Notes: generated by a model from the letters alone, not told the origin. Shown: positions 1-25,052, counted from the stretch's first letter. The stretch is 32,000 bases of DNA from Cupriavidus necator (GCF_016127575.1 NZ_CP066019.1:300001-332000); one strand, 5' to 3'. Program-made: numbers and translations.

Positions 1-676
1 CGAAGCAGGAGGCCTTCATCTGCTCGACGAACCGCCGTAGCCATTCCACGGCTTCAGCGCTGCGGGCTATGGGGAGGCCCATGGCTTGCTGTATGACCAT
101 AAACCGGCCCGGCAACAACCTCAGGCCCGCAGTGCGCTTGGCATCTGCTTCCAATTGCTGTCGCACCCCTGCAGCCACGTCCGCGCTTTGCTCCAGGAAT
201 GTTTGCACAACGGCCGGGGACGTCGGCGCGCGCACGATGTGTGCATGTTGCAGCGTACGAGTGAGATAAAGATCGTAGGCGCTCCCTTTTCCTACCACGA
301 CACGGCGTCCGGCAAGATCGACCTCTTCGTTGGCCTTGACGGTGGATTCCTCCTTCACCAAATACGCGCCTTCGATCAGCACGTAGGGTTCGGAGAATGC
401 GATGCCGGCCCCCCGGACCGGGTCGACGGCAAAGAATCCGAAGTCCGCCTGTTCGGCCGTGACGGCCTCGACCGACTTCCCCGCTGAGTCAAATACGACA
501 AGCTCAAGCGGAACACCCAGGCAACTGGCAAGCTCACGGGCGAGGTCCACTGAAACGCCGAATGGATTGCCGCCGGCATCGAGGTTTGCCAGGATAGGGT
601 TGCCTACGTTGATGGATGCGCGAAGGATTCCCGTCGGCGCAAGCTCCGCTGCGAGCCTTGCATATTGACTTGTCAT
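1..676 (-). CDS. Type-2 periplasmic-binding-fold (SBP_bac_3-like) protein without signal peptide; C-terminus cut by the window edge
   Basis: Absent from the ORF track because it runs off the window. The reverse complement from ATG 676..674 stays open to position 1 and reads MTSQYARLAAELAPTGILRASINVGNPILANLDAGGNPFGVSVDLARELASCLGVPLELVVFDSAGKSVEAVTAEQADFGFFAVDP...GKGSAYDLYL. GGAAG lies 5 nt upstream. It starts 22 nt after the stop of the upstream Ldh_2 gene. Confidence 0.55.
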   Translation of the reverse strand, partial: MTSQYARLAAELAPTGILRASINVGNPILANLDAGGNPFGVSVDLARELASCLGVPLELVVFDSAGKSVEAVTAEQADFGFFAVDPVRGAGIAFSEPYVLIEGAYLVKEESTVKANEEVDLAGRRVVVGKGSAYDLYLTRTLQHAHIVRAPTSPAVVQTFLEQSADVAAGVRQQLEADAKRTAGLRLLPGRFMVIQQAMGLPIARSAEAVEWLRRFVEQMKASCF

Positions 677-698
677 GATGCTTCCGGCGTGTGCCATT

Positions 699-1742
699 TC
701 AGTTCGTCTTTGCGTTGGCATGTCGATCCAGTAGCGCCTTCACCGCTGGATCCATGGCAATGCCCTTTTCGCGCTGACGCGCCAGCTTGTCGAGTTCGAT
801 CTCTCCGGGAACAATGACAGGCTTGCCAGGCTCCGCGGGTGCGCTACCGTGGAGGATCGCCGCAAAGTCTTGCATGCGGGCAGCCAGCCATTGGGCCGAT
901 CCCAGTCGCCGGGTATCAACCAGGATAAAGAAATGGCCCAGGTTCTGGGGCTGGTCGGGTGCATCGACCCACGACTTGACGTGAGTCAGGTACGCCGCAT
1001 CCGACAGCAGTCCTGCGAAAAGATCGACCATCAGTGCCAGTCCATAGCCCTTGTGCCCGCCAATCGGAAGCAGGAAGCCATCGAGGGCAGCCTTGGGATC
1101 GGTGGTCCGTCGTCCTTGCGCGTCGGTAGCCCATGAATCCGGGATGGATTGTCCTGCCTTGAGCGCATTGCGAATCTTGGCGCGTGCGGCCACGCTCATG
1201 GCCATGTCCAGCAGGAAGTGGCGGCCGTCATGCCCCGGTACGCCGAAACCCAGCGGGCTGTTGCCCAGGCGTGCGTCGCTTCCACCCCATGGCGCGATGG
1301 TCGTCGTGGCGTTGCTGCCAATCATGCTGGCGAATCCTGCTTCCGCCGCAATGTAGCTGTACGGTGAAACTGGCCCGAAATGATTGCTGCCCCGGACGAA
1401 GGCCATGCCGATGCCGAATTCTTCGGCGACTTCCATGGCGGCGCGCAGCGCCTTCATGCCAGCGAGCGGGCCGACTGCGTTGCCACCATCGACCTTCACC
1501 AGCGCTGGCGCGGCGCGCTCGACTGTAATGGTGGGGCGTGCCGAGATACCGCCGGACTGGAGCCGTTCGCCATAGGATTCAATGCGAGACAGTCCATGGG
1601 TGCTGAGCCCGAAGAGGTCTGCAAGTACCAGGATGTCAATGACATCGATGGCGTCCCCTTCGGTCAGGCCCAGGCCCTGGAACGCGCGCACTCCGAGCTG
1701 GCGGAGTTCGGCTTCGGATACAGTGATTCGATCTTGTTGCAT
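699..1742 (-). CDS. Ldh_2 family oxidoreductase (malate/L-lactate/ureidoglycolate dehydrogenase-like)
   Basis: The real part of ORF 699..1985 starts at the internal ATG 1742 (MQQDRITVSEAELRQLG...). Family-typical blocks are LSTHGLSRIESY, FVRGSNHFGP, IAPWGG and LLPIGGHKGYGLALMVD. The upstream 81 codons overlap the neighbouring gene's 3' end. Confidence 0.85.
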   Translation of the reverse strand: MQQDRITVSEAELRQLGVRAFQGLGLTEGDAIDVIDILVLADLFGLSTHGLSRIESYGERLQSGGISARPTITVERAAPALVKVDGGNAVGPLAGMKALRAAMEVAEEFGIGMAFVRGSNHFGPVSPYSYIAAEAGFASMIGSNATTTIAPWGGSDARLGNSPLGFGVPGHDGRHFLLDMAMSVAARAKIRNALKAGQSIPDSWATDAQGRRTTDPKAALDGFLLPIGGHKGYGLALMVDLFAGLLSDAAYLTHVKSWVDAPDQPQNLGHFFILVDTRRLGSAQWLAARMQDFAAILHGSAPAEPGKPVIVPGEIELDKLARQREKGIAMDPAVKALLDRHANAKTN

Positions 1743-1762
1743 GCTGGATATTCTCGGAAGAC

Positions 1763-2770
1763 TTAGTTTGCCTGGATTCCCGCGCTGCGGATGACGGTGC
1801 CCCAGCGTTGTTGCTCGGCACGAATGAATGACGCAAATTCGGCGCTGCCCGCGCCGACAGGCGTGCTTGCGTCCTCGGCAAGTCGTTGTCGCACCAGCGG
1901 GGTGGCCAGGGCCTTGACTGCCTCGGCATGCAGGCGGCTGACCACCGGCGTTGGCGTGCGCGCTGGCGCCATCAGCCCAAACCATTGCGAGCTTTCAAAT
2001 CCCGGGTAGCCTTCCTCGGCAATGGTGGGAACGTTGGGAATCGGCGCGAGGCGCTGTGACGATCCAACGGCGAGGATGCGCAGCTTGCCCGCCTTGGCGT
2101 GTTGCAGGATCCCCGCCAGGCCCGCCGATGCGGCGTCGATGTTTCCGGCGAGCAAGTCGGAAATCTGGGCGCCGGTGCCCTTGTATGGCACGTGCACAAG
2201 ATCGATATGCGCAGTCTGCTTGAGCATCTCGAAGGCAACGTTGCCAGCGCTTCCGTTGCCCGCCGATCCATAGGTCATGGCACCAGGCTTCGTCTTGGCC
2301 TGGGCGATGAATGCCTTGATGGAATCGCTATGGACGGTAGGCCCCACCGCGAACACCATCGGCACTTTCGCCAGCAAAGTCACCGGCGTGAAGTCCTTCA
2401 GAGGATCGTAGGGAAGCTTGCGCATCATGGCGGGATTGACGGCAAGCGTGCCAACGTGGCCGAGAACCAGTGTGTATCCGTCAGGCGCTGCGCGTGCGGT
2501 CTCCTGCATGGCGATGACACCCTGGCCGCCGCCCTTGTTGTCCACCACGATCTGTTGGCCCAGATTCTTCGACATCTCTGCCGCGATGACGCGGGCAATG
2601 GCGTCCGAGCTTCCGCCGGGCCCATACGGGACAATCAGCCGGATCGGCCTGGCGGGTGTCCAGGTCTGCGCCTGTGCGGGAATCAGTGCAGTGGCTAGCG
2701 GGATCGCGAGGGCGGCTAGGGCGTTACGGCGCGACATGCGCCGTAACGGCTCTTGTACTTTGTTGGGCAT
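1763..2770 (-). CDS. Bug family (TctC-like) tripartite tricarboxylate transporter substrate-binding protein
   Basis: ORF 1763..2827. I prefer the start at ATG 2770, preceded by AGGAGA. The product reads MPNKVQEPLRRMSRRNALAALAIPLATALIPAQA followed by PIRLIVPYGPGGSSD, YGSAGNGS and HVPYKGTG, which are typical Bug motifs. The signal peptide carries an SRRNAL twin-arginine-like n-region. Confidence 0.85.
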   Translation of the reverse strand: MPNKVQEPLRRMSRRNALAALAIPLATALIPAQAQTWTPARPIRLIVPYGPGGSSDAIARVIAAEMSKNLGQQIVVDNKGGGQGVIAMQETARAAPDGYTLVLGHVGTLAVNPAMMRKLPYDPLKDFTPVTLLAKVPMVFAVGPTVHSDSIKAFIAQAKTKPGAMTYGSAGNGSAGNVAFEMLKQTAHIDLVHVPYKGTGAQISDLLAGNIDAASAGLAGILQHAKAGKLRILAVGSSQRLAPIPNVPTIAEEGYPGFESSQWFGLMAPARTPTPVVSRLHAEAVKALATPLVRQRLAEDASTPVGAGSAEFASFIRAEQQRWGTVIRSAGIQAN

Positions 2771-2883
2771 TGTGTCTCCTGCTTGGTCAGGACAGTGTTT
2801 CGTTCCATCCATAGGGCGAATGATCACGCTGACCGGATTCCAGTGTAAAGTGCAAAGATCACAAGTATTCTTGCGTAAGACAC

Positions 2884-3780
2884 ATGAATTTCGATTTGGC
2901 GGACTTGCGAGCGTTCCTGGCCGTAGCCGATCTGGGCAGCTTCAAGGCGGCATCCGATGCGATGTTCCTGTCGCAGTCGGCACTGTCGCGTCGCGTCGAT
3001 AAACTGGAAGAAGCGCTTGGCGTCGCGCTGTTCACGCGGACCACCCGGAAAGTCGAATTGACTACCCTGGGCCGCATGTTTGTGCACAAGGCGCGAAACG
3101 TCATCAACGAGCTGGAAGAGGCCATGCTCGGCATCCAGACCGTTGCCGATCGGCTGTCGGGCGAGGTGACGCTTGCATGCGTACCGTCTGCGGTCGGGCA
3201 TTTCCTGCCCTCTGTCGTGGGGCCGTATCACGAGCGCTATCCGGGGATACGGATCCGCATCATTGACGAGTCTTCCGGGGATGTCCTTCTCGCGGTCACG
3301 CGCGGCGATGCGGATTTCGGCCTGACCTATATCGGGACGCAGGAGCCTGACATCGATTTCTGCCCCTTGATTGAAGAGGCGTTCGTTGTCGCCTGTCGCA
3401 AGGGGCATCCGCTGGCGACGCGAAGAAGCGTCAAATGGAAAGACCTTGAAGGCTTTGACTACATTACGCTCGCGCAAGGCAGCGGCAACCGCTTCCTGAT
3501 CGACCAGGCCCTTGCGCGGCTGCCGGTAAGACCGCGATGGTACTGCGAGGTAAATCATGTTCCCGCCTTGGTAAGCCTGGTCCAGGCCGACCTGGGAATC
3601 GGTGTTGTGCCTCGAATGGCTTTGCCGCCGAAGTCCAGCAGTGGTCTGCTTGCGATCCCGCTGACTGACCCAGTGATAACTCGAACGTTGGGATTGATCT
3701 CGCGACGAGGACGCCCGTTGGCGCCGGCCGCTCAGTTTCTCTTTGACATGCTTATCCGAAGAGGAACAGCGAAACCCTAG
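2884..3780 (+). CDS. LysR family transcriptional regulator
   Basis: The 298-aa ORF has the N-terminal HTH MNFDLADLRAFLAVADLGSFKAASDAMFLSQSALSRRVDKLEEALGVALFTRTTR. It is divergent from the Bug/Ldh_2 operon across a 113-bp intergenic region. Confidence 0.9.
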   Translation: MNFDLADLRAFLAVADLGSFKAASDAMFLSQSALSRRVDKLEEALGVALFTRTTRKVELTTLGRMFVHKARNVINELEEAMLGIQTVADRLSGEVTLACVPSAVGHFLPSVVGPYHERYPGIRIRIIDESSGDVLLAVTRGDADFGLTYIGTQEPDIDFCPLIEEAFVVACRKGHPLATRRSVKWKDLEGFDYITLAQGSGNRFLIDQALARLPVRPRWYCEVNHVPALVSLVQADLGIGVVPRMALPPKSSSGLLAIPLTDPVITRTLGLISRRGRPLAPAAQFLFDMLIRRGTAKP

Positions 3781-3879
3781 GCGCGTGGCACGAAGTTACT
3801 GCCGTGTCAGTGACCACCGGTGTCAGAGCACCCATGGTCACTCGGGAAGGAAGCGATGATCGACCGAGAATGGCCGACC

Positions 3880-4169
3880 CAGGCTCGTCCGGGCGCAGTT
3901 TGGCCTTGACGCCATCCACGTTCAGGCCCCCGACGTGATCCATGTGCATATGCGTAATCACGATGTCGGTGACCGCAGCCAGGCCTCGACCGTCGCACGT
4001 CTTGTGCAACCATCGTTGCAACCGATTGTAGGCAGCGGGGGCGAACGCCAGTAGCATCGCGAAGGCCCTCAGTATGTTGACCGAACGGCAACAATTGCTC
4101 CTGCGTCAGTACGAGCGCATGCGGAAATATCACGAACGCATCCACGCCATGCGTGGCATGCGGATTCAC
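3880..4169 (-). pseudogene. Remnant of an MBL-fold metallo-hydrolase (frameshifted and 3'-truncated)
   Basis: Frame of ORF 3752..4057 contains ...GLAAVTDIVITHMHMDHVGGLNVDG, the HxHxDH zinc motif. The N-terminal part sits in a different frame (ORF 3807..4169). No downstream MBL motifs follow the motif. Boundaries are approximate. Confidence 0.45.
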
Positions 4170-4209
4170 AGACGCGCCGAATCACGCGTGATTGACCCGA
4201 TCGCACCAG

Positions 4210-4252
4210 GCGGGCCGGAAGCCGGGAAGCTGCCGGCCCGCTTCTTATTTCG
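4210..4252 (+). terminator. GC-rich hairpin followed by a T-tract (intrinsic-terminator-like)
   Basis: GCGGGCCGG (4210-4218) pairs perfectly with CCGGCCCGC (4233-4241) around a 14-nt loop, followed by TTCTTATTTCG. It is canonical only in the + orientation. It lies between the argC stop and the MBL remnant, so it may act bidirectionally or be a relic. Confidence 0.4.
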
Positions 4253-4266
4253 ACGCTGGGTAGGCT

Positions 4267-5220
4267 TCAGGCGGCCCGGTGAACCTCCGCCGCCACCCCG
4301 GCCAGCATGAGGTCGAGGTTCTGCACTGCCGCCCCCGAAGCACCCTTGCCGAGGTTGTCGAACACCGCTGCCAACAGCACTTGCCCGTGCTCGCAGTTGG
4401 CGAACACGCCCAGGCGCAGGTCGTTGGTGCCGTTCAGTGCCTGCGGGTCGAGGTGAGTAGCGGCGGCCGATTCGGCTAGCGGCATCACCTCGACATGGCG
4501 GGCGTTGGCGTAGTGGTCGAGCAGGCAGGCGTGCAGCCTGCCGACGTCCGTGCCGGGTGCCAGCAGGTCCAACTCCAGCGCCACCGTCAGTACGATACCT
4601 TGCCGGAAGGCGCCGTAGGCCGGCACGAAGGCGGGGCGCCGTGCCAGGCCCGCGTGCTGCCGGATTTCAGGCGTGTGCTTGTGCGCCAGGTCCAGGCCGT
4701 AGACCTGGAAGGGCAGGGCCCGGGTGGCCTCCGGTCCCTCGTAGGTATCGACGGCGATGCGGCCGCCACCCGAATAACCCGACACCGCATGGATGGCGAT
4801 GGGGTAGTCGTGCGGCAGCAGGCCGGCCTCCGCCAGGGGGCGCAACAGGCCGATCGCCCCGGTGGGATAGCAGCCCGGATTGCTGACGCGCAGCGCGCCC
4901 GCGATGCGCTGCGCCTGGCCGGCGGTCATCTCGGGAAAGCCGTAGGTCCAGCCGGGCTGCGTGCGGTGTGCCGAACTGGCGTCGATCACACGCACCGCAG
5001 GGTTGACGATGGACGCCACCGCCTCGCGTGCGGCGGAGTCCGGCAGGCACAGGATGGCGATGTCGCAGCCGTTGATGGCGTCGGCGCGGGCGCGCGCATC
5101 CTTGCGCTGGCCGGCGGGCAGTGTCAGCAGGCGCAGATCGTCGCGTCCGCGCAGGCGCTCGTGGATCTGAAGGCCGGTGGTGCCCTGGTCGCCGTCGATG
5201 AAAACAAGAGGGTAGCGCAT
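4267..5220 (-). CDS. argC: N-acetyl-gamma-glutamyl-phosphate reductase, short type-2 form
   Basis: The 317-aa ORF reads [23 protein letters not shown]..., with [17 protein letters not shown] (catalytic Cys), AVSGYSGGG and [19 protein letters not shown]. These blocks and the length match type-2 ArgC. Confidence 0.9.
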
Positions 5221-5421
5221 GGGATGGATCCTTGGCAGTGGCGTGAAAGTGGCGGCCCCGGCCGGTTCAGCATCAGCTCTGCGTTGGTGCGGCCGGTACA
5301 GGAAGCGCCATCTTGCGCCACCGGCTAGAATCGAAGAAGTTGAATTTCATGACGATGAAATTCACGTTTCCTGAACGATATTCCTCGTCAGCAGATACGC
5401 CCTTAACCGGAGTGCCGCCCC

Positions 5422-6306
5422 ATGCGCGAGATCAGCCTGGACCGCCTGCGTACCCTCGTCGCCATCGCCGATCTGGGTTCCTTCGCCGAAGCCGCGCGCG
5501 CGTTGCACCTGGCTCCGCCCACCGTCAGCCTTCACATTGCCGAGCTGGAAGCCCGTGTCGGTGCGCAACTGCTGACGCGCAGGCGCGGTGAGGTGCGTCC
5601 GTCGTCCATTGGCGAGACCCTGGTCGATCGCGCCCGCCGCCTGCTGGCCGATGCCGACCTTGCGCTGGACGACGTGCAGCGTCAGGTGCAGGGGTTGACC
5701 GGCCGCGTGCGCCTCGGCGCCTCGACCGGGGCCATCGCCCACCTGCTGCCGCAGGCGCTGGCCATGCTGGCGGAGCGGCATCCCGACATCGACGTGCAGG
5801 TGGCCGTGCTTACCTCGGAGGAGACGCTGGCGCGGCTGGCCGCCGGCACGCTGGAGATCGGTCTGGTGGCACTGCCACAGGCGCGCGTGGCGGGGCTGAC
5901 CATCCGCCCTTGGCGGCGCGATCCGGTACGGGCTTTCCTGCCAGCGAGCTGGCCCTGCCCGGCGCGCATCACGCCGGCCTGGCTGGCAACGCGCCCGCTG
6001 ATCCTCAATGACGGCACCACGCGCCTGTCGCGCCTGACCGCCGAGTGGTTCGCCAGCGGTGGCCACAGGCCGGCGCCGCGGATTCAGCTCAACTACAACG
6101 ACGCCATCAAGAGCCTGGTGGCGGCCGGCTATGGCGCGGCCCTGCTGCCACACGAGGTCACCACGCCGGCGCCGGATGCGCGCATAGTGATGCGGCCGCT
6201 GCGGCCGGCGTTGTGGCGGCGACTGGGGTTGGCGCACAGCGGGGAGCGGGTAGAACGCGCCACGGAATACGTACGGGAGGCCCTGTGGGCGCTGCGGGCG
6301 GGATAG
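5422..6306 (+). CDS. LysR family transcriptional regulator
   Basis: The 294-aa ORF has the HTH MREISLDRLRTLVAIADLGSFAEAARALHLAPPTVSLHIAELEARVGAQLLTRR. It is divergent from argC across a 201-bp intergenic region. Confidence 0.88.
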   Translation: MREISLDRLRTLVAIADLGSFAEAARALHLAPPTVSLHIAELEARVGAQLLTRRRGEVRPSSIGETLVDRARRLLADADLALDDVQRQVQGLTGRVRLGASTGAIAHLLPQALAMLAERHPDIDVQVAVLTSEETLARLAAGTLEIGLVALPQARVAGLTIRPWRRDPVRAFLPASWPCPARITPAWLATRPLILNDGTTRLSRLTAEWFASGGHRPAPRIQLNYNDAIKSLVAAGYGAALLPHEVTTPAPDARIVMRPLRPALWRRLGLAHSGERVERATEYVREALWALRAG

Positions 6307-6526
6307 TGCCGTTGGCCACACGTCGGCCGGCGGCTGTGCGCGGCGCCGCCACGCGTTGATCGTGTCCTCGATTGCATTGATGGAGACATTTGCCGCGCCT
6401 GTCTGCATGTTGCGGTCATGGGCCCCTCACTGGTGAGCGCCCCAAGCTCAGCGCCCATGGGGCTGCTAGCGACGGGCGGCATAAGCGCCGTGCAGTTTCG
6501 GACTAGAATCCTCTGAGGAGGTGTCA

Positions 6527-7030
6527 GTCATGTCAGCTATCAAGCGCATCGATCCGGGCCATTCCGCCCATCAGGCCGCGCCGCACAGGACCCCCCGCTA
6601 CCCTGCGGAGCACGTCACGCTGACGGCTGGCTCCAGGAAGAGGCTACGCCCCAGTGTGCCGCATCGAAAGGTCGGGCGCGGCAAGGTCGGCGTCGGCGGC
6701 AAGTAGGGACCTGCAGCGGCTGGTCGGCTTCGCGCCCGGCGGCTCGGTCGATGGGCCGGCCGGTCCCGTACAGGCACTCGATCACTTCTTCACGATCGAA
6801 GTACGCGCCGGCGCGTGACGTTCAGTTCGTTGCCATAGTCTGTGTCGGCATCAGCGATCACCGGTACCACTACCGACTGCGCGATGACGCGTGAACAAGC
6901 TGGGCGTGGGGCAGATCACGCACGATGTGTCGTCGGCGCCGGAGGGTCAGCGTCATTCTTGAACTCGCGTGCACCCTCATCGCACGCCGGCGCGGAGCAG
7001 AGTTTGCAGCTACTTGAGCGCTATTGGGTT
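6527..7030 (-). pseudogene. Decayed isocitrate lyase/PEP mutase family gene (PrpB / carboxy-PEP mutase-like)
   Basis: Minus-strand codons 6891..6811 read RVIAQSVVVPVIADADTDYGNELNVTR, which matches the family's P-[VL]-x-x-D-x-D-x-G-[YF]-G-N..NV.RT block. The frame stops at 6790. A shifted frame continues RAGAYFDRE... where the intact family has AGAAG.H.EDQ. No ORF of 60 aa or more survives. The outer limits are uncertain. Confidence 0.5.
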
Positions 7031-20978: not shown

Positions 20979-21749
20979 ATGAATGCGAATAGTGATCCAA
21001 GGGGCGCCTCAAAAGGCGACGATGGCGCTGGGGGCGTCATAGCGGTCACCCGCGCCCTGCGCGTACTCGAGGCGTTCGGGGTGAACGACCCCCAGCTCTC
21101 ACTTGCCGAACTGAGCCGGCGGACCGGCATCCACAAGACCACCGTGCTGCGGCTGGCGCGCACGCTGGCGGCGGACAACTATCTGGTGCAGAAGGAAGAC
21201 GGCAACTGGCGGCTCGGCCGCGCAGCCGGGTGGCTGGGCGCGTGCTACCAGGCCACCTTCAACGTTCAGGAAGTGGTGGAGCCGGTGCTGCGGGAGCTGA
21301 CGATCAAGACCGGCGAAAGCGCTTCGTTCTACGTCCGGGAGGGACAACAGCGAACCTGCCTCGTCCGGGTCGAAGGACCGCAGGCCATCCGGCATCACGT
21401 CAGGATCGGGGCGGCCCTGCCGCTGGACAGCGGTTCGCCAGGCCGCGTCATCCTGGCGTTCTCAGGTGAGCCGGGCGAGCTTTATGAAATGATCCGCCGC
21501 CGTGGATTTCATCTGTCGCTCGGCGAGCGCGAGGCCGAAGTCTCGAGCGTGTCGGCACCGGTTTTCGGATTGCACTGGCGGCTGCTAGGCTCCATGTGCA
21601 TTTCGGGACCGACCGCCCGGCTAAGCGAAGAGCGTTTGCTGGAGCTGGCACAGACAGTCGTCGACGCGGCGAACAAGCTTTCGTATGCCATGGCAGGAAG
21701 CCAACGGCCTGCGATGCAAATTGAAAGGCCGTCGACCTGGCACCCTTGA
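20979..21749 (+). CDS. IclR family transcriptional regulator
   Basis: The internal ATG 20979 of ORF 20631..21749 gives MNANSDPRG...VIAVTRALRVLEAFGVNDPQLSLAELSRRTGIHKTTVLRLARTLAADNYL, a wHTH. This is followed by the IclR effector-domain blocks GESASFYVREG and ISGPTARL. Confidence 0.88.
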   Translation: MNANSDPRGASKGDDGAGGVIAVTRALRVLEAFGVNDPQLSLAELSRRTGIHKTTVLRLARTLAADNYLVQKEDGNWRLGRAAGWLGACYQATFNVQEVVEPVLRELTIKTGESASFYVREGQQRTCLVRVEGPQAIRHHVRIGAALPLDSGSPGRVILAFSGEPGELYEMIRRRGFHLSLGEREAEVSSVSAPVFGLHWRLLGSMCISGPTARLSEERLLELAQTVVDAANKLSYAMAGSQRPAMQIERPSTWHP

Positions 21750-22197
21750 GATTGCAGATGTGGGGCAAGGAGAGCCGATAGAAATCTTAGATGACCTCTG
21801 TCAGTCGCGAGCCGGGCGTCGGTTTTCGACTGCGGATTCAACCGGTCGATTCAGCGTCTCGGCAATGCAGGTGCCGAACGACGCTATATGGCTGCGGCCG
21901 TTGCGATGCTCCATCGTTGGCATTTCAACTGGCTCAAGGGTGCGGAAATCCTGGATCGGGGAGGAAGGCGGGATAGGGTCCGATAACGCTGCCTTATCGT
22001 GTCGTCAGCGAAATACTAGCGCGATGGCACGCCGGGGCATCGTTGATCCAGAATTGCAGCGGCTGCGAAAAGATGTAGTTGCCGAGCCAAATTGCGAATC
22101 GGTATGTGCCAGACAGCGTGAAAGCTGCAGTTGACTGGCAGAACGCACCCACCACTTTCGAACGTTTTATGCAAATCGTCGTTTGCTGAAAGCAGAG

Positions 22198-22764
22198 CTA
22201 GACGTCGTCAGCGGGAACCGCATGACCTTGATCCCGCAAGGCCTTCGTCCAGCGCTTAATGCGTGCACGCAGTCGTCCCTGTGCAGCCCTGTCTATCGGC
22301 ATGTCGTCGACGCGGCTGATCGCTGTACGCGGCAAGACATAGCCAAGCTGTATCAGGGCCATACAGAAGACTCGGTCCTTGTCGCGATCCGCTGCCGCCT
22401 TCGCCATAAAGAGGTCAACAAGGTCAAGGCAATAGCCGACCCGCCCATTCGTGCCCACCGTCTGAATGCGCTGCAAGCGGTTTTCCCAGCCGGTCGGAAG
22501 ACATGCTGTCTCTGGCCCGACGCCCTGCGCGTAGTAACCATACGTCTCGTGAAAGCGCGAGCCTTCGCCAATCGCCGCGTCGATCGCATCCGCCTTGTGG
22601 GTAGCATTGAGCGGGTAGATGTCAGCCTCCGCGGACATCGTGAAAACCGCCGGGGGATTAGGGATCGGCCCCAGGATGGATTGGCTGCCAACGACAACGA
22701 ACTCATATTCGTTCGTGATGTCGGCAGCAGCCCGAATGATGTGTTCCAGATCTTCCCGCTTCAT
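22198..22764 (-). CDS. Minimal nucleotidyltransferase-fold protein (Pol-beta/MNT-like), putative toxin/effector
   Basis: The internal ATG 22764 of ORF 22198..22938 gives a 188-aa product starting MKREDLEHIIRAAADITNEYEFVVVGSQSILGPIPNPPAVFTMSAEADIYPL. This shows G26-S27, then 17 residues, then E45-x-D47, the minimal NTase signature. The start overlaps the upstream stop as ATGA. Many A/T-ending codons contrast with neighbouring genes. It resembles a family I recall as DUF6036, which I have not verified. Confidence 0.6.
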   Translation of the reverse strand: MKREDLEHIIRAAADITNEYEFVVVGSQSILGPIPNPPAVFTMSAEADIYPLNATHKADAIDAAIGEGSRFHETYGYYAQGVGPETACLPTGWENRLQRIQTVGTNGRVGYCLDLVDLFMAKAAADRDKDRVFCMALIQLGYVLPRTAISRVDDMPIDRAAQGRLRARIKRWTKALRDQGHAVPADDV

Positions 22765-23426
22765 TCCTGGTCCCCGAGGACAACGCCTTTTTTCAACGCC
22801 TGAACCTGTGCTAGCACTTCCTGCCGAATGGCATCTGGTAAAAGCGTGGGCAGGGGAGACGCTTGGCGCAGCTCTTGAGCACGCCGAGTTCGGCCAAGCG
22901 CTTTGCGCCACGACTGGTTCGCAAGAATCGTTTCCCACTCGGACCAGAGTGAATCAGACCGTGAGTCTCCCTGCGCGCGCCATCGCCTGAGGACTTCTCG
23001 GGCCCGGTCCAGTAGCGCTGGGTTATCCTGAATCAGGCGGATTGCTTCCTTGTGCAGCGCCATGCTCTGCAAGTCCTGAGCCTCATGGCGGCTTGGATCA
23101 GTCCTTACCCGAACCTGAACCTGCGGAATGGCGCGCTTGGATGAGGCGGCCGCAGAGTTCGCCGGCGCCGGTTGAAAAGTATCGCTGACTAACAGGGCAA
23201 GGTCACCGGCAACCCCCAGCACGGACATAACACGCAGATATGTGCCCATGGTTGGCGCGGGGTCGCCTGCCTCAACGGCAGCGAGGGTCGTCCGCGAGAT
23301 GCCGACGCGCTTGGCCATCTCAACCGTGCCAAAGCCCTGAGCCTTCCGCAGGCGTTTGATGCGGTCGCCGAGTTGCAGGAGCAAATGGCGCTCGAGAACC
23401 GAGGTGGTATCGGTAAAGGCTGGCAT
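22761..23426 (-). CDS. XRE/Cro-type HTH regulator with a C-terminal domain of unknown function, putative antitoxin
   Basis: The 221-aa ORF has the HTH LGDRIKRLRKAQGFGTVEMAKRVGISRTTLAAVEAGDPAPTMGTYLRVMSVLGV. A Pro/Ala/Ser linker follows. The helical C-terminal domain reads ...AIRLIQDNPALLDRAREVLRRWRAQGDSRSDSLWSEWETILANQSWRKALGRTRRAQELRQASPL. Confidence 0.75.
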   Translation of the reverse strand: MPAFTDTTSVLERHLLLQLGDRIKRLRKAQGFGTVEMAKRVGISRTTLAAVEAGDPAPTMGTYLRVMSVLGVAGDLALLVSDTFQPAPANSAAASSKRAIPQVQVRVRTDPSRHEAQDLQSMALHKEAIRLIQDNPALLDRAREVLRRWRAQGDSRSDSLWSEWETILANQSWRKALGRTRRAQELRQASPLPTLLPDAIRQEVLAQVQALKKGVVLGDQE

Positions 23427-23435
23427 ATGTCCAGT

Positions 23436-23464
23436 ATTTTAGACAAAATTCACAGGTTTGACTA
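23436..23464 (-). promoter_or_regulatory. Candidate promoter giving a leaderless or near-leaderless HTH mRNA
   Basis: On the minus strand, TAGTCA (23464-23459), a 17-nt spacer, then TAAAAT (23441-23436), with only 9 nt (ACTGGACAT) before the ATG and no Shine-Dalgarno. ATTTT-AGAC-AAAAT arms overlap the -10 element. Confidence 0.3.
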
Positions 23465-24056
23465 GTTTACTGAACAGATTTTACGTTGGGCAGCGTGTTG
23501 CGTCGGATCCACCTGGACGTATCTCAGTCGACCGCAGAGTTCCTGCGCCACACCCCTGTTATAGGTGGGCTTGCAGCCGACGCGCGTCTCTCTGGCGCCG
23601 CCAGTAGGCAGTGCCTATGGGGCCACGAATAAACTTGTGCAAACCAACCGTCCGTTTGCATGCAGGCGATATTGGACACGGCAACTCTTGCGCCCGCCGG
23701 ATAGTTGGCGGCAACACGATCGACACCTCACAGTGGCCGACCCCGGACGATGGGGCGCTTGAGGGCAATAGGCGTGCCCTATCCTTTGCGAGGAAGCTCG
23801 CAGTGGAGCTATACCTTAGCGGCGCTACCTGGTGGCCATCAAAGCGGCGTTCGCCACACTGAGGCAATAGCGTTAGCAAGCATCAACGCCCAACAAGAAA
23901 GCCGGGCGGCGGACTAAGTTGGCTGGCTGACATGTGTTCGGTATTTCGACGCGGCGAATGATCCGATAGTGCGGACCAGGATGCACCATGGCCTAGTTGT
24001 TGGCCCCGGTTTCCCGGCGCATAGCAAGGTCGGGTGCCGTACCGGACCAGCCGGCT

Positions 24057-25052
<996 letters not shown>

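Follow-up and report, generated by a model that had tools for sequence, protein, structure and literature searches.

Two overlapping genes in a stretch of 32,000 nucleotides from Cupriavidus necator (the whole stretch analysed, referred to below as the window) are best explained, with a probability of about 0.6, as an autoregulated and mobile toxin-antitoxin-like (TA-like) module in which a nucleotidyltransferase (NTase) would be the toxin and a modular DNA-binding protein the antitoxin. By sequence comparison, the pair has every comparative-genomic hallmark of a TA module; its physical binding, toxicity and direction of neutralisation are what we infer. The positions of all features are given in Table 1. 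The ORF list and the sequence agree with the initial annotation on the sizes of ORF1 and ORF2 and on their ATGA overlap. Of 75 homologous loci, 55 share this overlap of 4 nt, and most of the others overlap by 11-20 nt. The pair was also rightly described as standing alone between two metabolic operons (an IclR regulator/TctC-type receptor cluster on one side, an HpcH-like lyase/MaoC-like hydratase cluster on the other) and as rich in A/T-ending codons unlike its neighbours, its GC3 being 0.65-0.69 versus 0.74-0.90 in the neighbouring genes. The Rfam scan of positions 21500-24300, covering the flanking gaps, detected no structured RNA at E<=1. No intrinsic terminator adjoins the 3' end of ORF2, the sole candidate being located about 460 nt downstream. 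As a whole, the first interpretation stands as to a coupled, mobile DNA-binding/NTase module of AbiE/MenAT design and falls as to AbiEii/MenT membership, the argument from size and the support for abortive infection.

Table 1. Features of the ORF1-ORF2 locus, in coordinates of the window.
Feature	Position	Strand	Description or basis
ORF1	22761..23426	-	221 aa, ATG start; candidate antitoxin/repressor composed of XRE HTH, linker and partner domain
Cro/C1 (XRE) HTH, HipB-like	23199..23375	-	ORF1 residues 18-76; recognition helix G-I-S-R-T-T-L
Helix 74-84 followed by flexible Pro/Ala/Ser-rich linker	23097..23198	-	ORF1 residues 77-110
All-helical partner domain	22788..23096	-	ORF1 residues 111-213; proposed NTase-binding/neutralising domain
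ATGA stop/start overlap, 4 nt	22761..22764	-	translational coupling; read directly from the sequence
ORF2	22198..22764	-	188 aa, ATG start; candidate toxin, DUF6036-family Pol-beta-type nucleotidyltransferase
NTase motifs I/II, G26-S27 ... S44-x-E46-x-D48	22621..22689	-	at least 90% conserved in 68 relatives of 36-65% identity
NTase C-terminal motif D117-x4-K122-x4-R127-x-K129-D130	22375..22416	-	conservation in ORF2 relatives
Candidate promoter	23436..23464	-	-35 TAGTCA (23459-23464), 17-nt spacer, -10 TAAAAT (23436-23441); consensus scan
Four putative operator half-sites, type TG..CA	23428..23476	-	two operators, 12-bp half-site spacing
Half-site TGTTCA	23471-23476	-	positions conserved in 75 loci
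Half-site TAGTCA	23459-23464	-	identical hexamer to -35; positions conserved in 75 loci
Half-site TGTCTA	23440-23445	-	overlaps -10; positions conserved in 75 loci
Half-site TGGACA	23428-23433	-	abuts ORF1 ATG; positions conserved in 75 loci
Mobile cassette, extent as common DNA	22185..23644	.	megablast of segment 20900-25200 against plasmids

The nucleotidyltransferase and its partner protein

ORF2 belongs to the Pfam family PF19502 (DUF6036; 34.7 bits, E 1.9e-8, gathering cut-off 23.6), its residues 13-131 being aligned to positions 13-112 of the 164 positions of the model. PF19502 is the sole family matched by 67 of 68 diverse relatives of ORF2. The protein represents a divergent, mainly betaproteobacterial subfamily of DUF6036, and a remote full-length member encoded on a plasmid of Polaromonas JS666 (4.4e-41) has the same partner-domain gene upstream. 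The NTase is not a new family: the name "DUF6036 family nucleotidyltransferase" is already in use in the NCBI annotation. The Pfam entry for DUF6036 gives neither function nor partner. In the searchable literature, we found no paper on DUF6036 or PF19502, and no experiments on the toxicity, binding or activity of DUF6036 proteins.

The signature G-S ... E-x-D noticed at the outset is present in ORF2 and conserved across the 68 relatives. G26 and S27 were correctly placed, and the catalytic acidic pair was given with a shift of one position (E45/D47 instead of E46/D48). In the AF2 model of ORF2 (pLDDT 91), the motifs I/II are placed on the beta1/helix and beta2 elements, with VVVG26S27 at a strand-to-helix junction and S44-A-E46-A-D48 on the strand 46-51. 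This is the motif order of the Pol-beta superfamily, in which [DE]x[DE] comes one strand after hG[GS]. Within the C-terminal motif, D117, K122 and D130 are invariant among the ORF2 relatives (36-65% identity) and R127 is conserved in at least 90% of them; Q80, on the strand 78-81 of the model, is not conserved outside the subfamily. Judging from these motifs and from the model, ORF2 looks like an active enzyme. Its best PDB fold match with Foldseek is ANT(2'')-Ia (probability 0.97, E 2.6e-3), with a poor geometry (TM 0.40, rmsd 10.6 Å, 15% identity), and the second-best is MenT1, a moderate match only (TM 0.52, E 0.7). The isoelectric point is 5.8 for the NTase (family median 5.2) and about 10 for the partner ORF1. 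For toxins targeting nucleic acids and for their antitoxins, the charges are usually the other way round.

The HTH of ORF1, recognized as Cro/XRE in the initial annotation, matches the Pfam families HTH_31 (4.7e-11) and HTH_3 (6e-8) over residues 18-76. The profile search of the PDB led to HipB of P. fluorescens 2P24 (9u9g, E 3.9e-15), and the top matches of Foldseek are likewise 9u9g with 38-39% identity. The second half of the protein had been described as a linker followed by a helical domain of no known family, and both the AF2 model and the Pfam search agree with that description. In the model, the pLDDT falls under 50 in two stretches (residues 74-85 and 98-110), as for a disordered linker, and the linker is the most variable region in the alignment of ORF1 homologues; residues 111-213 are modelled as all-helical with a pLDDT of about 85. 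This partner domain is characterized by the motif RW...W..IL...LRQxSP[LF]..LL..R, where W164, R187 and P191 are invariant. Five divergent copies of the domain have no Pfam match at E<=10, the profile search detected no sequence relative in the PDB, and Foldseek with the whole ORF1 model recovered HTH matches only. A HEPN reading of the domain was rejected, there being neither an Rx4-6H (or other conserved R...H) motif nor a HEPN Pfam match at E<=10; the pair had already been noted as having no HEPN partner.

The partner domain is carried by 562 proteins. It is present in 11/11 upstream partners of remote DUF6036 genes, and conversely a DUF6036 gene is found directly downstream of the domain in the 10 of 10 places checked. 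The domain stands alone or is fused to XRE, HTH_38, HTH_17, DUF6088/AbiEi-like or Phd/YefM domains. The Phd/YefM match (34.3 bits, cut-off 29.8) comes from a fusion that defines a whole subfamily of proteins of about 154 aa; the weak DUF6088/AbiEi_4 N-terminus occurs in one remote relative only (L082). In five loci (L070, L079, L081, L083 and L087) the partner domain is retained beside the NTase without any DNA-binding domain, which argues that it is more than a repressor. On this comparative evidence, the core module is taken to be the partner domain plus the NTase. Two apparent partner-NTase fusions (P0249 and P0341) were downgraded as Rosetta-stone evidence, since they are singletons on contigs of about 2 kb and may be frameshift artefacts. 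The N-terminus of a further "fusion", P0323, is a TnpB-like zinc-ribbon fragment, probably resulting from a merger of gene calls.

Promoter, operators and mobility of the pair

In the window, 9 nt separate the -10 box from the ATG of ORF1, and this interval contains no Shine-Dalgarno sequence. The consensus-scan score of the promoter is, taken alone, no better than that of shuffled sequence. In 75 aligned homologous upstream regions, however, a TAnnnT hexamer resembling a -10 box lies within -20..-6 in 71, with the -10 placed at -15..-10, and SD-like 4-mers occur in 0/75. The conserved position of the -10 and the absence of SD therefore support a leaderless or near-leaderless ORF1-ORF2 mRNA, as the initial annotation had proposed. 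In the four half-sites, the central dinucleotide co-varies with the residue x of the recognition helix [S/T/A]-R-x-T-L, which defines four specificity classes: x=T with GA/AA (24 of 29), x=N with AC/AT (30 of 32), x=M with TA (8 of 10) and x=P with TC/TT (2 of 2). This covariation points to an autoregulation of the operon by ORF1 through the predicted operators, which cover the -35, the -10 and the start site.

The searches detected more than 3300 homologues of ORF2, whose relatives form 2819 representative clusters, and 1667 homologues of ORF1. An ORF1 homologue is located directly upstream and on the same strand in 79 of 80 genome loci, the lone exception being cut by the end of a contig. 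The conservation of the pair across genomes, which had been set as a check, is confirmed, and a chance pairing is dismissed because of the many homologues and of this synteny. The 141 nearest-neighbour ORFs match 152 Pfam families, none of them in more than four loci, and there is therefore no conserved third gene. The genomic neighbourhoods of the pair are unrelated between genomes; in 79 genomes, the neighbours of the subfamily are overwhelmingly housekeeping or metabolic genes and no defence family is enriched. The pair has the generic layout of a type II TA system, with two small co-directional overlapping genes, a conserved pairing and a patchy mobile distribution.

The two genes make up a cassette that is complete in itself and moves horizontally, and their GC3, lower than that of the neighbouring genes, is in line with this. 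In the megablast search, the DNA in common with replicons carrying the pair is limited to about 22185-23644: it spans query positions 1286-2745 and 1286-2726 for the replicons of C. necator and KK10, and somewhat less (1299-2577) for C. necator N-1. The flanking IclR and lyase genes match different replicons that are devoid of the pair. The pair is present on 60 plasmids, of which 29 are conjugative. In other genomes it adjoins integrases, IS elements, AbiEii pairs, a Fic gene, a HEPN-MNT pair or CRISPR-Cas. Around the cassette, the search for terminal repeats gave just short two-copy matches that resemble chance. A phage origin was rejected: tblastn gave no match among 50,697 phage records, and neither a PHROG nor a fold in BFVD corresponded. 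Among the Burkholderiales-dominated relatives listed, both proteins share about 65-70% identity, an unusually high conservation for a TA pair. The NTase is broken with an intact partner in 8 of 79 loci and the partner is broken in 1 of 79 (Fisher p=0.034), several of the decayed copies being from MAGs where assembly errors are possible. The NTase disruptions include premature stops at W93 and at E67 as well as the substitution D48H. More split NTases are found in C. necator N-1, C. metallidurans and a Bradyrhizobium.

Toxin-antitoxin reading and its alternatives

In the proposed mechanism, the HipB-like XRE HTH of ORF1 would bind the two operators over the -35, the -10 and the leaderless transcript start, and would so repress the operon, and the ATGA coupling in translation would keep the ORF1 and ORF2 proteins at a fixed ratio. 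The helical partner domain at the C-terminus of ORF1 would bind and neutralise the NTase, either by sequestration or by an induced inactivating modification as in MenA/AbiEi. When free, ORF2 would transfer a nucleotide to a cellular target and growth would be inhibited. One may speculate that this target is the tRNA 3' end, as for MenT. A protein or a small molecule is at least as likely because the NTase is acidic, and this acidity, together with the basic nature of the partner, speaks against a plain copy of the MenT tRNA mechanism. More broadly, DUF6036 and the partner domain could constitute a large TA/defence family with a mechanism unlike that of MenT/AbiEii, a proposal to which we give a low probability. 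Its acidic NTase would not act on tRNA and would nucleotidylylate a protein or small molecule, or be controlled via the invariant R-x-x-S-P of the basic partner; the neutralisation/activation logic would be new, with an antitoxin domain of new fold recruited by at least five DNA-binding modules.

A dispensable enzyme without toxicity would likewise be expected to decay while its partner is retained, and to that extent the decay pattern weighs against the TA reading. ORF2 would then be a small-molecule NTase (for example an ANT-like enzyme modifying antibiotics or xenobiotics), ORF1 its dedicated repressor or regulatory subunit, and the cassette would have spread through resistance and not through addiction. 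The same alternative has been put forward for MNT modules by Makarova et al. 2009 (PMC2701414), and it is compatible with the best Foldseek match of ORF2 being an aminoglycoside NTase, with the acidity expected where nucleic acid is not bound, and with the high conservation of both proteins. However, the superposition on ANT(2'')-Ia is geometrically poor, the partner domain stays with the NTase even where the DNA-binding domain is missing, and Phd/YefM, which is specific to TA antitoxins, is fused to the partner domain across a whole subfamily. The stop/start overlap and the leaderless promoter with its predicted autoregulation are likewise hallmarks of TA systems, and we regard a non-toxic enzyme as quite improbable. 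The same decay pattern tells against a reversed polarity of type VII, in which the basic helical partner would be the effector or toxin and the acidic NTase an antitoxin inactivating it by nucleotidylylation in the manner of MntA/HepT, possibly on the conserved Ser of R-x-x-S-P. With the partner as toxin, cells with a broken NTase beside an intact partner ORF would not survive. The charges of the two proteins match the pattern generally known for MNT/HEPN pairs, R187..S190-P191 is almost invariant in the partner, and there are precedents for a toxin domain joined to a DNA-binding one (RHH-HEPN fusions, PMC2701414). Nevertheless, the partner is encoded first, bears DNA-binding domains of antitoxin type including Phd/YefM and is devoid of HEPN features, and its helical domain of about 105 aa has no evident enzymatic or membrane-active feature; we hold the exchange of roles to be very unlikely.

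An anti-phage abortive infection of the AbiE type, where phage defence would be the selected function and infection would trigger the release of the NTase, is a functional sub-case of the preferred TA reading and not an exclusive alternative. The design parallels AbiEi/AbiEii, the fourth most abundant defence system according to PMC11375011, and some relatives are found beside CRISPR-Cas (L070), AbiEii pairs (L081 and L086) or a DNA methyltransferase (L084), others beside integrases and caspase-like peptidases (L094-L096). Against this, the nearest neighbours in 79 genomes are overwhelmingly genes of housekeeping or metabolism, and in the window metabolic operons flank the pair. In PADLOC-DB v2, ORF2 matches no family and ORF1 has only generic HTH matches, and PHROGs contain no model for the NTase. 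The abortive-infection reading of the initial annotation is left without direct support because no PADLOC model matches the NTase and its gene is absent from the 50,697 phage records, and we hold this function to be doubtful.

NTase toxins such as MenT and AbiEii now attract much attention in TA and phage-defence biology, and have revealed unexpected chemistry such as the extension of tRNA 3' ends and antitoxin-induced auto-phosphorylation. The locus represents a second NTase family, unrelated in sequence to MenT/AbiEii and having its own dedicated partner domain; DUF6036 is already catalogued, its partner domain was previously undescribed. If the NTase is toxic, a toxin family and an antitoxin domain, both new, enter the TA repertoire, Pfam DUF6036 gains a function, and the module becomes a clean system for understanding how one neutralising domain joins XRE, Phd/YefM, AbiEi-like and other DNA-binding modules. 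If it is not, what remains is an ordinary cassette of a regulator and an enzyme. With its conserved leaderless promoter and co-varying operator sites, the module also offers a natural series for studies of HTH specificity.

Comparison with known systems

MenA/MenT of M. tuberculosis, MenAT1 above all, and AbiEi/AbiEii are NTase toxin-antitoxin systems of type IV/VII. Like the pair, they are operons of two genes in which the partner precedes an NTase of Pol-beta type. The initial annotation saw this layout mirrored here, which holds for the design and not for sequence membership: none of the 68 diverse ORF2 relatives matches PF08843 (DUF1814) at E<=1, two PDB profile searches recovered no MenT/AbiEii chain at E<=10, and hhalign against one AbiEii sequence gave a probability of 1%. 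A homology to AbiEii/MenT was consequently rejected, all these searches being negative. The proteins had been called much shorter than those families, which is wrong for MenT1, whose PDB chain has 194 residues for 188 in ORF2. The residues T39/D41/K137/D152 of MenT1, which include its catalytic pair K137 and D152 (PMC10435456), follow a pattern similar to E46/D48/K122/D130 of ORF2, a correspondence that we infer and that is not based on superposition. The invariant block D-x4-K-x4-R-x-K-D of ORF2 would be the counterpart of the AbiEii/MenT motifs III/IV with their catalytic Lys and Asp. As in MenA/AbiEi, the antitoxins are diverse and modular, and one partner of an ORF2 relative has an AbiEi-like/DUF6088 wHTH. 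Contrary to MenT, which has a phospho-acceptor [S/T]-x-D, ORF2 has the classical E-x-D, and it further differs from MenT/AbiEii in being acidic. Contrary to AbiEi/MenA3 (COG5340), ORF1 has an XRE HTH and no AbiEi match, as had been noted for the regulator, and it combines this HTH with a domain that no described antitoxin has (no Pfam or PDB match).

The HTH of ORF1 is nearest to HipB, and HipBA also has multiple palindromic operators over the -35 and the -10, as predicted here. The downstream gene is the HipA kinase in that system and an NTase in the present one, and HipB is devoid of the extra C-terminal domain of ORF1 (about 105 aa). The type VII systems HEPN-MNT/HepT-MntA resemble the pair in associating a minimal NTase with a small helical protein and in their acidic-NTase/basic-partner charges. 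They differ in a reversed gene order, the NTase being downstream here, in the HEPN motif and Pfam match that ORF1 does not have, and in the C-terminal helical domain that is proper to ORF2. The decay restricted to the NTase also speaks against an antitoxin role of this enzyme, the role that it has in HEPN-MNT. We found no paper linking NetFlax with a nucleotidyltransferase.

The module Xress-MNTss of Streptococcus suis, an "Xre-MNT" type II TA system, has a minimal NTase toxin preceded by an XRE antitoxin, and promoter binding with autoregulation is reported both for the antitoxin and for the complex (PMC8406773). MNTss differs in that kanamycin NTase served as the template of its model and that its toxicity required export to the periplasm (PMC8406773), and no partner domain is described for Xress, the comparison with ORF1/ORF2 being by description only. 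The best reading of these likenesses and differences is that the module resembles AbiE/MenAT in design and probably stands outside that family.

The gene pair and its genomic setting

The initial annotation had reported two overlapping minus-strand ORFs (221 and 188 aa) with a codon usage unlike that of their neighbours. Both ORFs and their overlap lie where it placed them (see table), and the GC3 of the pair is 0.65-0.69, lower than that of the neighbouring genes (0.74-0.90). In a collection of 5.8 billion proteins, more than 3300 homologues of ORF2 and 1667 of ORF1 were detected, and an exhaustive HMMER search gave 2819 representative clusters for ORF2. A profile of ORF2 recovered 80 genome loci, mostly from Burkholderiales, and the pair proves to be conserved across genomes: an ORF1 homologue lies directly upstream on the same strand in 79 of them, the lone exception beginning 9 nt from a contig end. 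The 4-nt stop/start overlap is present in 55/75 loci. No conserved third gene or neighbourhood was found among the flanking ORFs of the loci examined, the 141 nearest representing 152 different Pfam families, each in at most four loci.

The DNA common to pair-carrying replicons is limited to a short segment (query 1286-2745 and 1286-2726 in C. necator and KK10 replicons; slightly shorter, 1299-2577, in C. necator N-1), so the unit is a mobile cassette of about 1.46 kb. On either side, the IclR and HpcH-like lyase genes have their matches in pair-free replicons. Two apparently non-coding gaps border the cassette, with no Rfam match, no convincing terminal repeat and no adjacent terminator, and we raise the question of whether they may be insertion scars. 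The pair occurs on 60 plasmids (34 from Rhodococcus; 29 of the 60 conjugative) and is absent from phage genomes.

Concerning particular loci, the pair of an Ideonella MAG directly follows a cas9-cas1-cas2 operon and its CRISPR array; in the ORF list, the translated repeats of the array read 'SLGDWEMRSDRN'. The MNT-HEPN pair immediately upstream of the Aquabacterium parvum pair forms with it a small TA island. On an Alicycliphilus and a Mycolicibacterium plasmid, the DUF6036 pair adjoins AbiEii/AbiGii-family NTase genes that each have a partner upstream, small or of HTH type, so that two different NTase modules stand side by side. The setting of the Bradyrhizobium loci L094-L096 may be a defence or mobile island.

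Coordinates of features in the window and in homologous loci
Feature	Position	Strand	Description
ORF1	22761..23426	minus	221 aa, ATG start
ORF2	22198..22764	minus	188 aa, ATG start
Overlap	22761-22764		ATGA common to ORF1 stop and ORF2 start
Promoter-like match	23464..23436		TAGTCA-17-TAAAAT
Operator half-sites	23428-23476
Shared DNA	~22185-23644		common to pair-carrying replicons
Gap	21750-22197		~450 bp, to IclR gene
Gap	23645-24056		~410 bp, between cassette and HpcH-like lyase gene
L070 (Ideonella MAG)	13-5700		CRISPR-Cas setting of HTH-less pair
L079 (A. parvum)	4929-5309		canonical MNT
L079 (A. parvum)	5306-5677		HEPN/DUF86-like (RNRMAHGY motif), upstream of HTH-less pair
L081 (Alicycliphilus plasmid)	2636-3675		AbiEii/AbiGii-family NTase
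L086 (Mycolicibacterium plasmid)	4026-5196		AbiEii/AbiGii-family NTase
L082 (Methylovorus plasmid)	4001-4771		NTase with C-terminal extension
L094-L096 (Bradyrhizobium)	775-2043, 4085-6387		phage-type integrase and large caspase-like (Peptidase_C14) protein around stand-alone-partner pair
L094	3384-4018		decayed NTase, upstream partner gene intact
Decayed loci	about 6001-6560 of each locus		NTase

ORF1, its partner domain and the predicted operators

Residues 18-76 of ORF1 form a Cro/C1-type HTH (Pfam HTH_31, 4.7e-11; HTH_3, 6e-8), as had been read from the sequence, and NCBIfam gives sub-threshold matches to HipB/Y4mF-type antitoxins. In the predicted structure, the HTH is followed by a linker modelled with low confidence (residues 74-85 and 98-110) and by a helical domain (111-213, pLDDT about 85). 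Foldseek matched the HTH only; its closest known structure is the HipB antitoxin of P. fluorescens 2P24 (9u9g, 38-39% identity), in agreement with the sequence-profile search (E 3.9e-15). The helical domain had been called unplaceable, and indeed it has no Pfam match even at E<=10 and no sequence relative in the PDB.

L070 and L079, two of the 80 loci, have an upstream gene that encodes this partner domain alone (about 106-109 aa, no HTH). Remote DUF6036 genes on plasmids (28-54% identity) all have a small, usually overlapping gene upstream, and an alignment and HMM made from the ORF1 C-terminal domain detected the partner domain in 11/11 of these genes. Its motif is RW...(about 10)...W..[IL]L ... 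LRQxSP[LF]..LL...R, with W164, R187 and P191 invariant. The N-terminus is XRE/HTH_3 in the window and two mycobacterial plasmids, HTH_38 in Pseudarthrobacter and Paenarthrobacter, a DUF6088/AbiEi_4-like wHTH on the Methylovorus plasmid and a bona fide Phd/YefM antitoxin domain on the Polaromonas JS666 plasmid (34.3 bits, cut-off 29.8); Alicycliphilus, Rhodococcus and Bradyrhizobium partners have no N-terminal module. With a profile built from the remote partner domains, 562 proteins were retrieved, including a large Phd/YefM-fused subfamily of ~154 aa, DUF6088- and HTH_17-fused forms and many stand-alone proteins (109-134 aa). In the reverse check, based on three different partner proteins, a DUF6036 gene lies directly downstream in 10/10 genomic places. 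A conserved neutralising domain with interchangeable DNA-binding domains is an architecture typical of TA antitoxins. The invariant core of the module is the DUF6036 NTase with a dedicated, previously undescribed partner domain.

Two apparent partner-NTase fusions, singletons on short contigs, may be artefacts. The 392-aa protein P0323 joins a TnpB/IS605-like zinc-ribbon fragment, at the N-terminus, to the NTase, probably through a merging of gene calls beside an IS element. Extensions of 80-130 aa are found at the C-terminus of some NTases (P0244, P0256, P0269, P0287 and the Methylovorus copy); the Methylovorus copy has a KfrB domain (Pfam 8.4e-13) at its end and adjoins a TraI relaxase and a KfrB gene.

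The single promoter-like match in the window is by itself not above chance. The comparison of 75 homologous upstream regions anchored at the ORF1 ATG reveals position-specific conservation at four places: TG..CA (-50/-45), TG..CAAA (-38/-31, the -35 element), TTTG..TAAAAT (-21/-10) and TG..CAA just ahead of the ATG. Of the 75 regions, 71 have a -10-like TAnnnT hexamer between -20 and -6 and none has an SD-like 4-mer, in favour of the leaderless promoter proposed initially; a leaderless transcript, or one with a 1-3-nt leader, is expected from the nine nt that lie between the -10 and the ATG. The four half-sites make up two predicted operators with a 12-bp spacing, over the -35 and the -10/start site. 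In a manner partly confounded by phylogeny, their central dinucleotide co-varies with residue x of the recognition helix [S/T/A]-R-x-T-L: GA/AA for T (24/29, half-site TG(G/A)ACA), AC/AT for N (30/32, TGA(C/T)CA), TA for M (8/10, T(A/T)TACA) and TC/TT for P (2/2, TTT(C/T)CA). The existence of four specificity classes is a strong indication that ORF1 binds the half-sites and represses its own operon. The half-sites of the window and the 80 loci represent a natural specificity series for an XRE repressor.

The nucleotidyltransferase and its decay

ORF2 belongs to PF19502, "Nucleotidyltransferase of unknown function (DUF6036)" (34.7 bits, cut-off 23.6), and its close relatives are labelled "DUF6036 family nucleotidyltransferase" by NCBI; the NTase family is already catalogued and the kind of system already known. 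The NTase signature of the initial annotation is present, with its catalytic residues numbered off by one (correctly G26-S27 ... S44-A-E46-A-D48). In 68 representatives (36-65% identity), G66, D117, K122 and D130 are invariant, and H8, A12, G26, S27, Q28, S44, E46, D48, S69, F71, G76, T86, P90, G92, W93, R96 and R127 are at least 90% conserved. With the classical hG[GS] / [DE]x[DE] pair and a C-terminal D-x4-K-x4-R-x-K-D block, the enzyme looks active. The AF2 model, from a 27-sequence alignment, is confident (pLDDT 91, pTM 0.87) and displays an alpha/beta NTase core at the N-terminus and a four-helix region at the C-terminus. Foldseek found no close relative in the PDB and no match in BFVD. 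The two best PDB fold matches, both of them minimal NTases and of comparable size, are ANT(2'')-Ia (E 2.6e-3, probability 0.97, TM 0.40) and, in the MenAT1 complex, the tRNA-modifying toxin MenT1 (TM 0.52/0.50, E 0.7).

The NTase is disrupted beside a full-length upstream partner in 8/79 loci and the partner in one only (L044; Fisher two-sided p=0.034), several decayed copies coming from MAGs, where some may be assembly errors. The lesions are stops at W93 (L025), E67 (L068) and E85 (L058, with the catalytic change D48H and an insertion), C-terminal frameshifts (L005, L061, L072, L080) and loss of the N-terminus (L065). The NTase is likewise split in C. necator N-1, C. metallidurans and a Bradyrhizobium strain.

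The pair is a real two-gene module, conserved, mobile and predicted to be autoregulated, and more robust than the first reading could know. With a probability of about 0.6, it most likely functions as a toxin-antitoxin-like system whose candidate toxin is the NTase. The decay asymmetry fits a toxic NTase with a harmless antidote as partner; it argues against the reversed, type VII-like polarity of MntA/HepT, which we consider very improbable. The same asymmetry is compatible with a dispensable non-toxic enzyme. The top fold match of ORF2 is an antibiotic NTase and its fold likeness to MenT1 is moderate, which weighs against the toxin-antitoxin reading; a regulated non-toxic small-molecule NTase seems improbable. 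A role in defence, as a sub-case of the toxin-antitoxin-like function, is doubtful.

Comparison with known systems

Nucleic-acid-targeting toxins are usually basic and antitoxins acidic. The charge pattern of the pair is inverted: ORF2 is acidic (pI 5.8; family median 5.2), whereas ORF1 (10.4), its partner domain (9.96) and the remote partner domains (mostly 9.4-11.2) are basic, so it is unwarranted to carry the MenT tRNA mechanism over directly. The pattern of conserved residues in ORF2 is similar to that of the essential residues of MenT1 (D41, K137 and D152; phospho-acceptor T39; PMC10435456), to which they would putatively correspond. The likeness in outline to AbiEi/AbiEii and MenA/MenT first proposed stands, but the pair is not a member of those families, and its NTase is by sequence distinct from DUF1814/AbiEii: none of the 68 NTase relatives matches PF08843 (DUF1814/AbiEii) at E<=1, PDB profile searches retrieved no MenT or AbiEii chain, and an hhalign trial against one AbiEii sequence was insignificant. 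The NTase fits no PADLOC or PHROG model, and the literature searched contains no mention of DUF6036 or PF19502. MNT-HEPN was described by Makarova et al. 2009, where the DUF6036 and partner pair is absent (PMC2701414). Judged by architecture, the nearest experimental precedent is the "Xre-MNT" of S. suis (PMC8406773).
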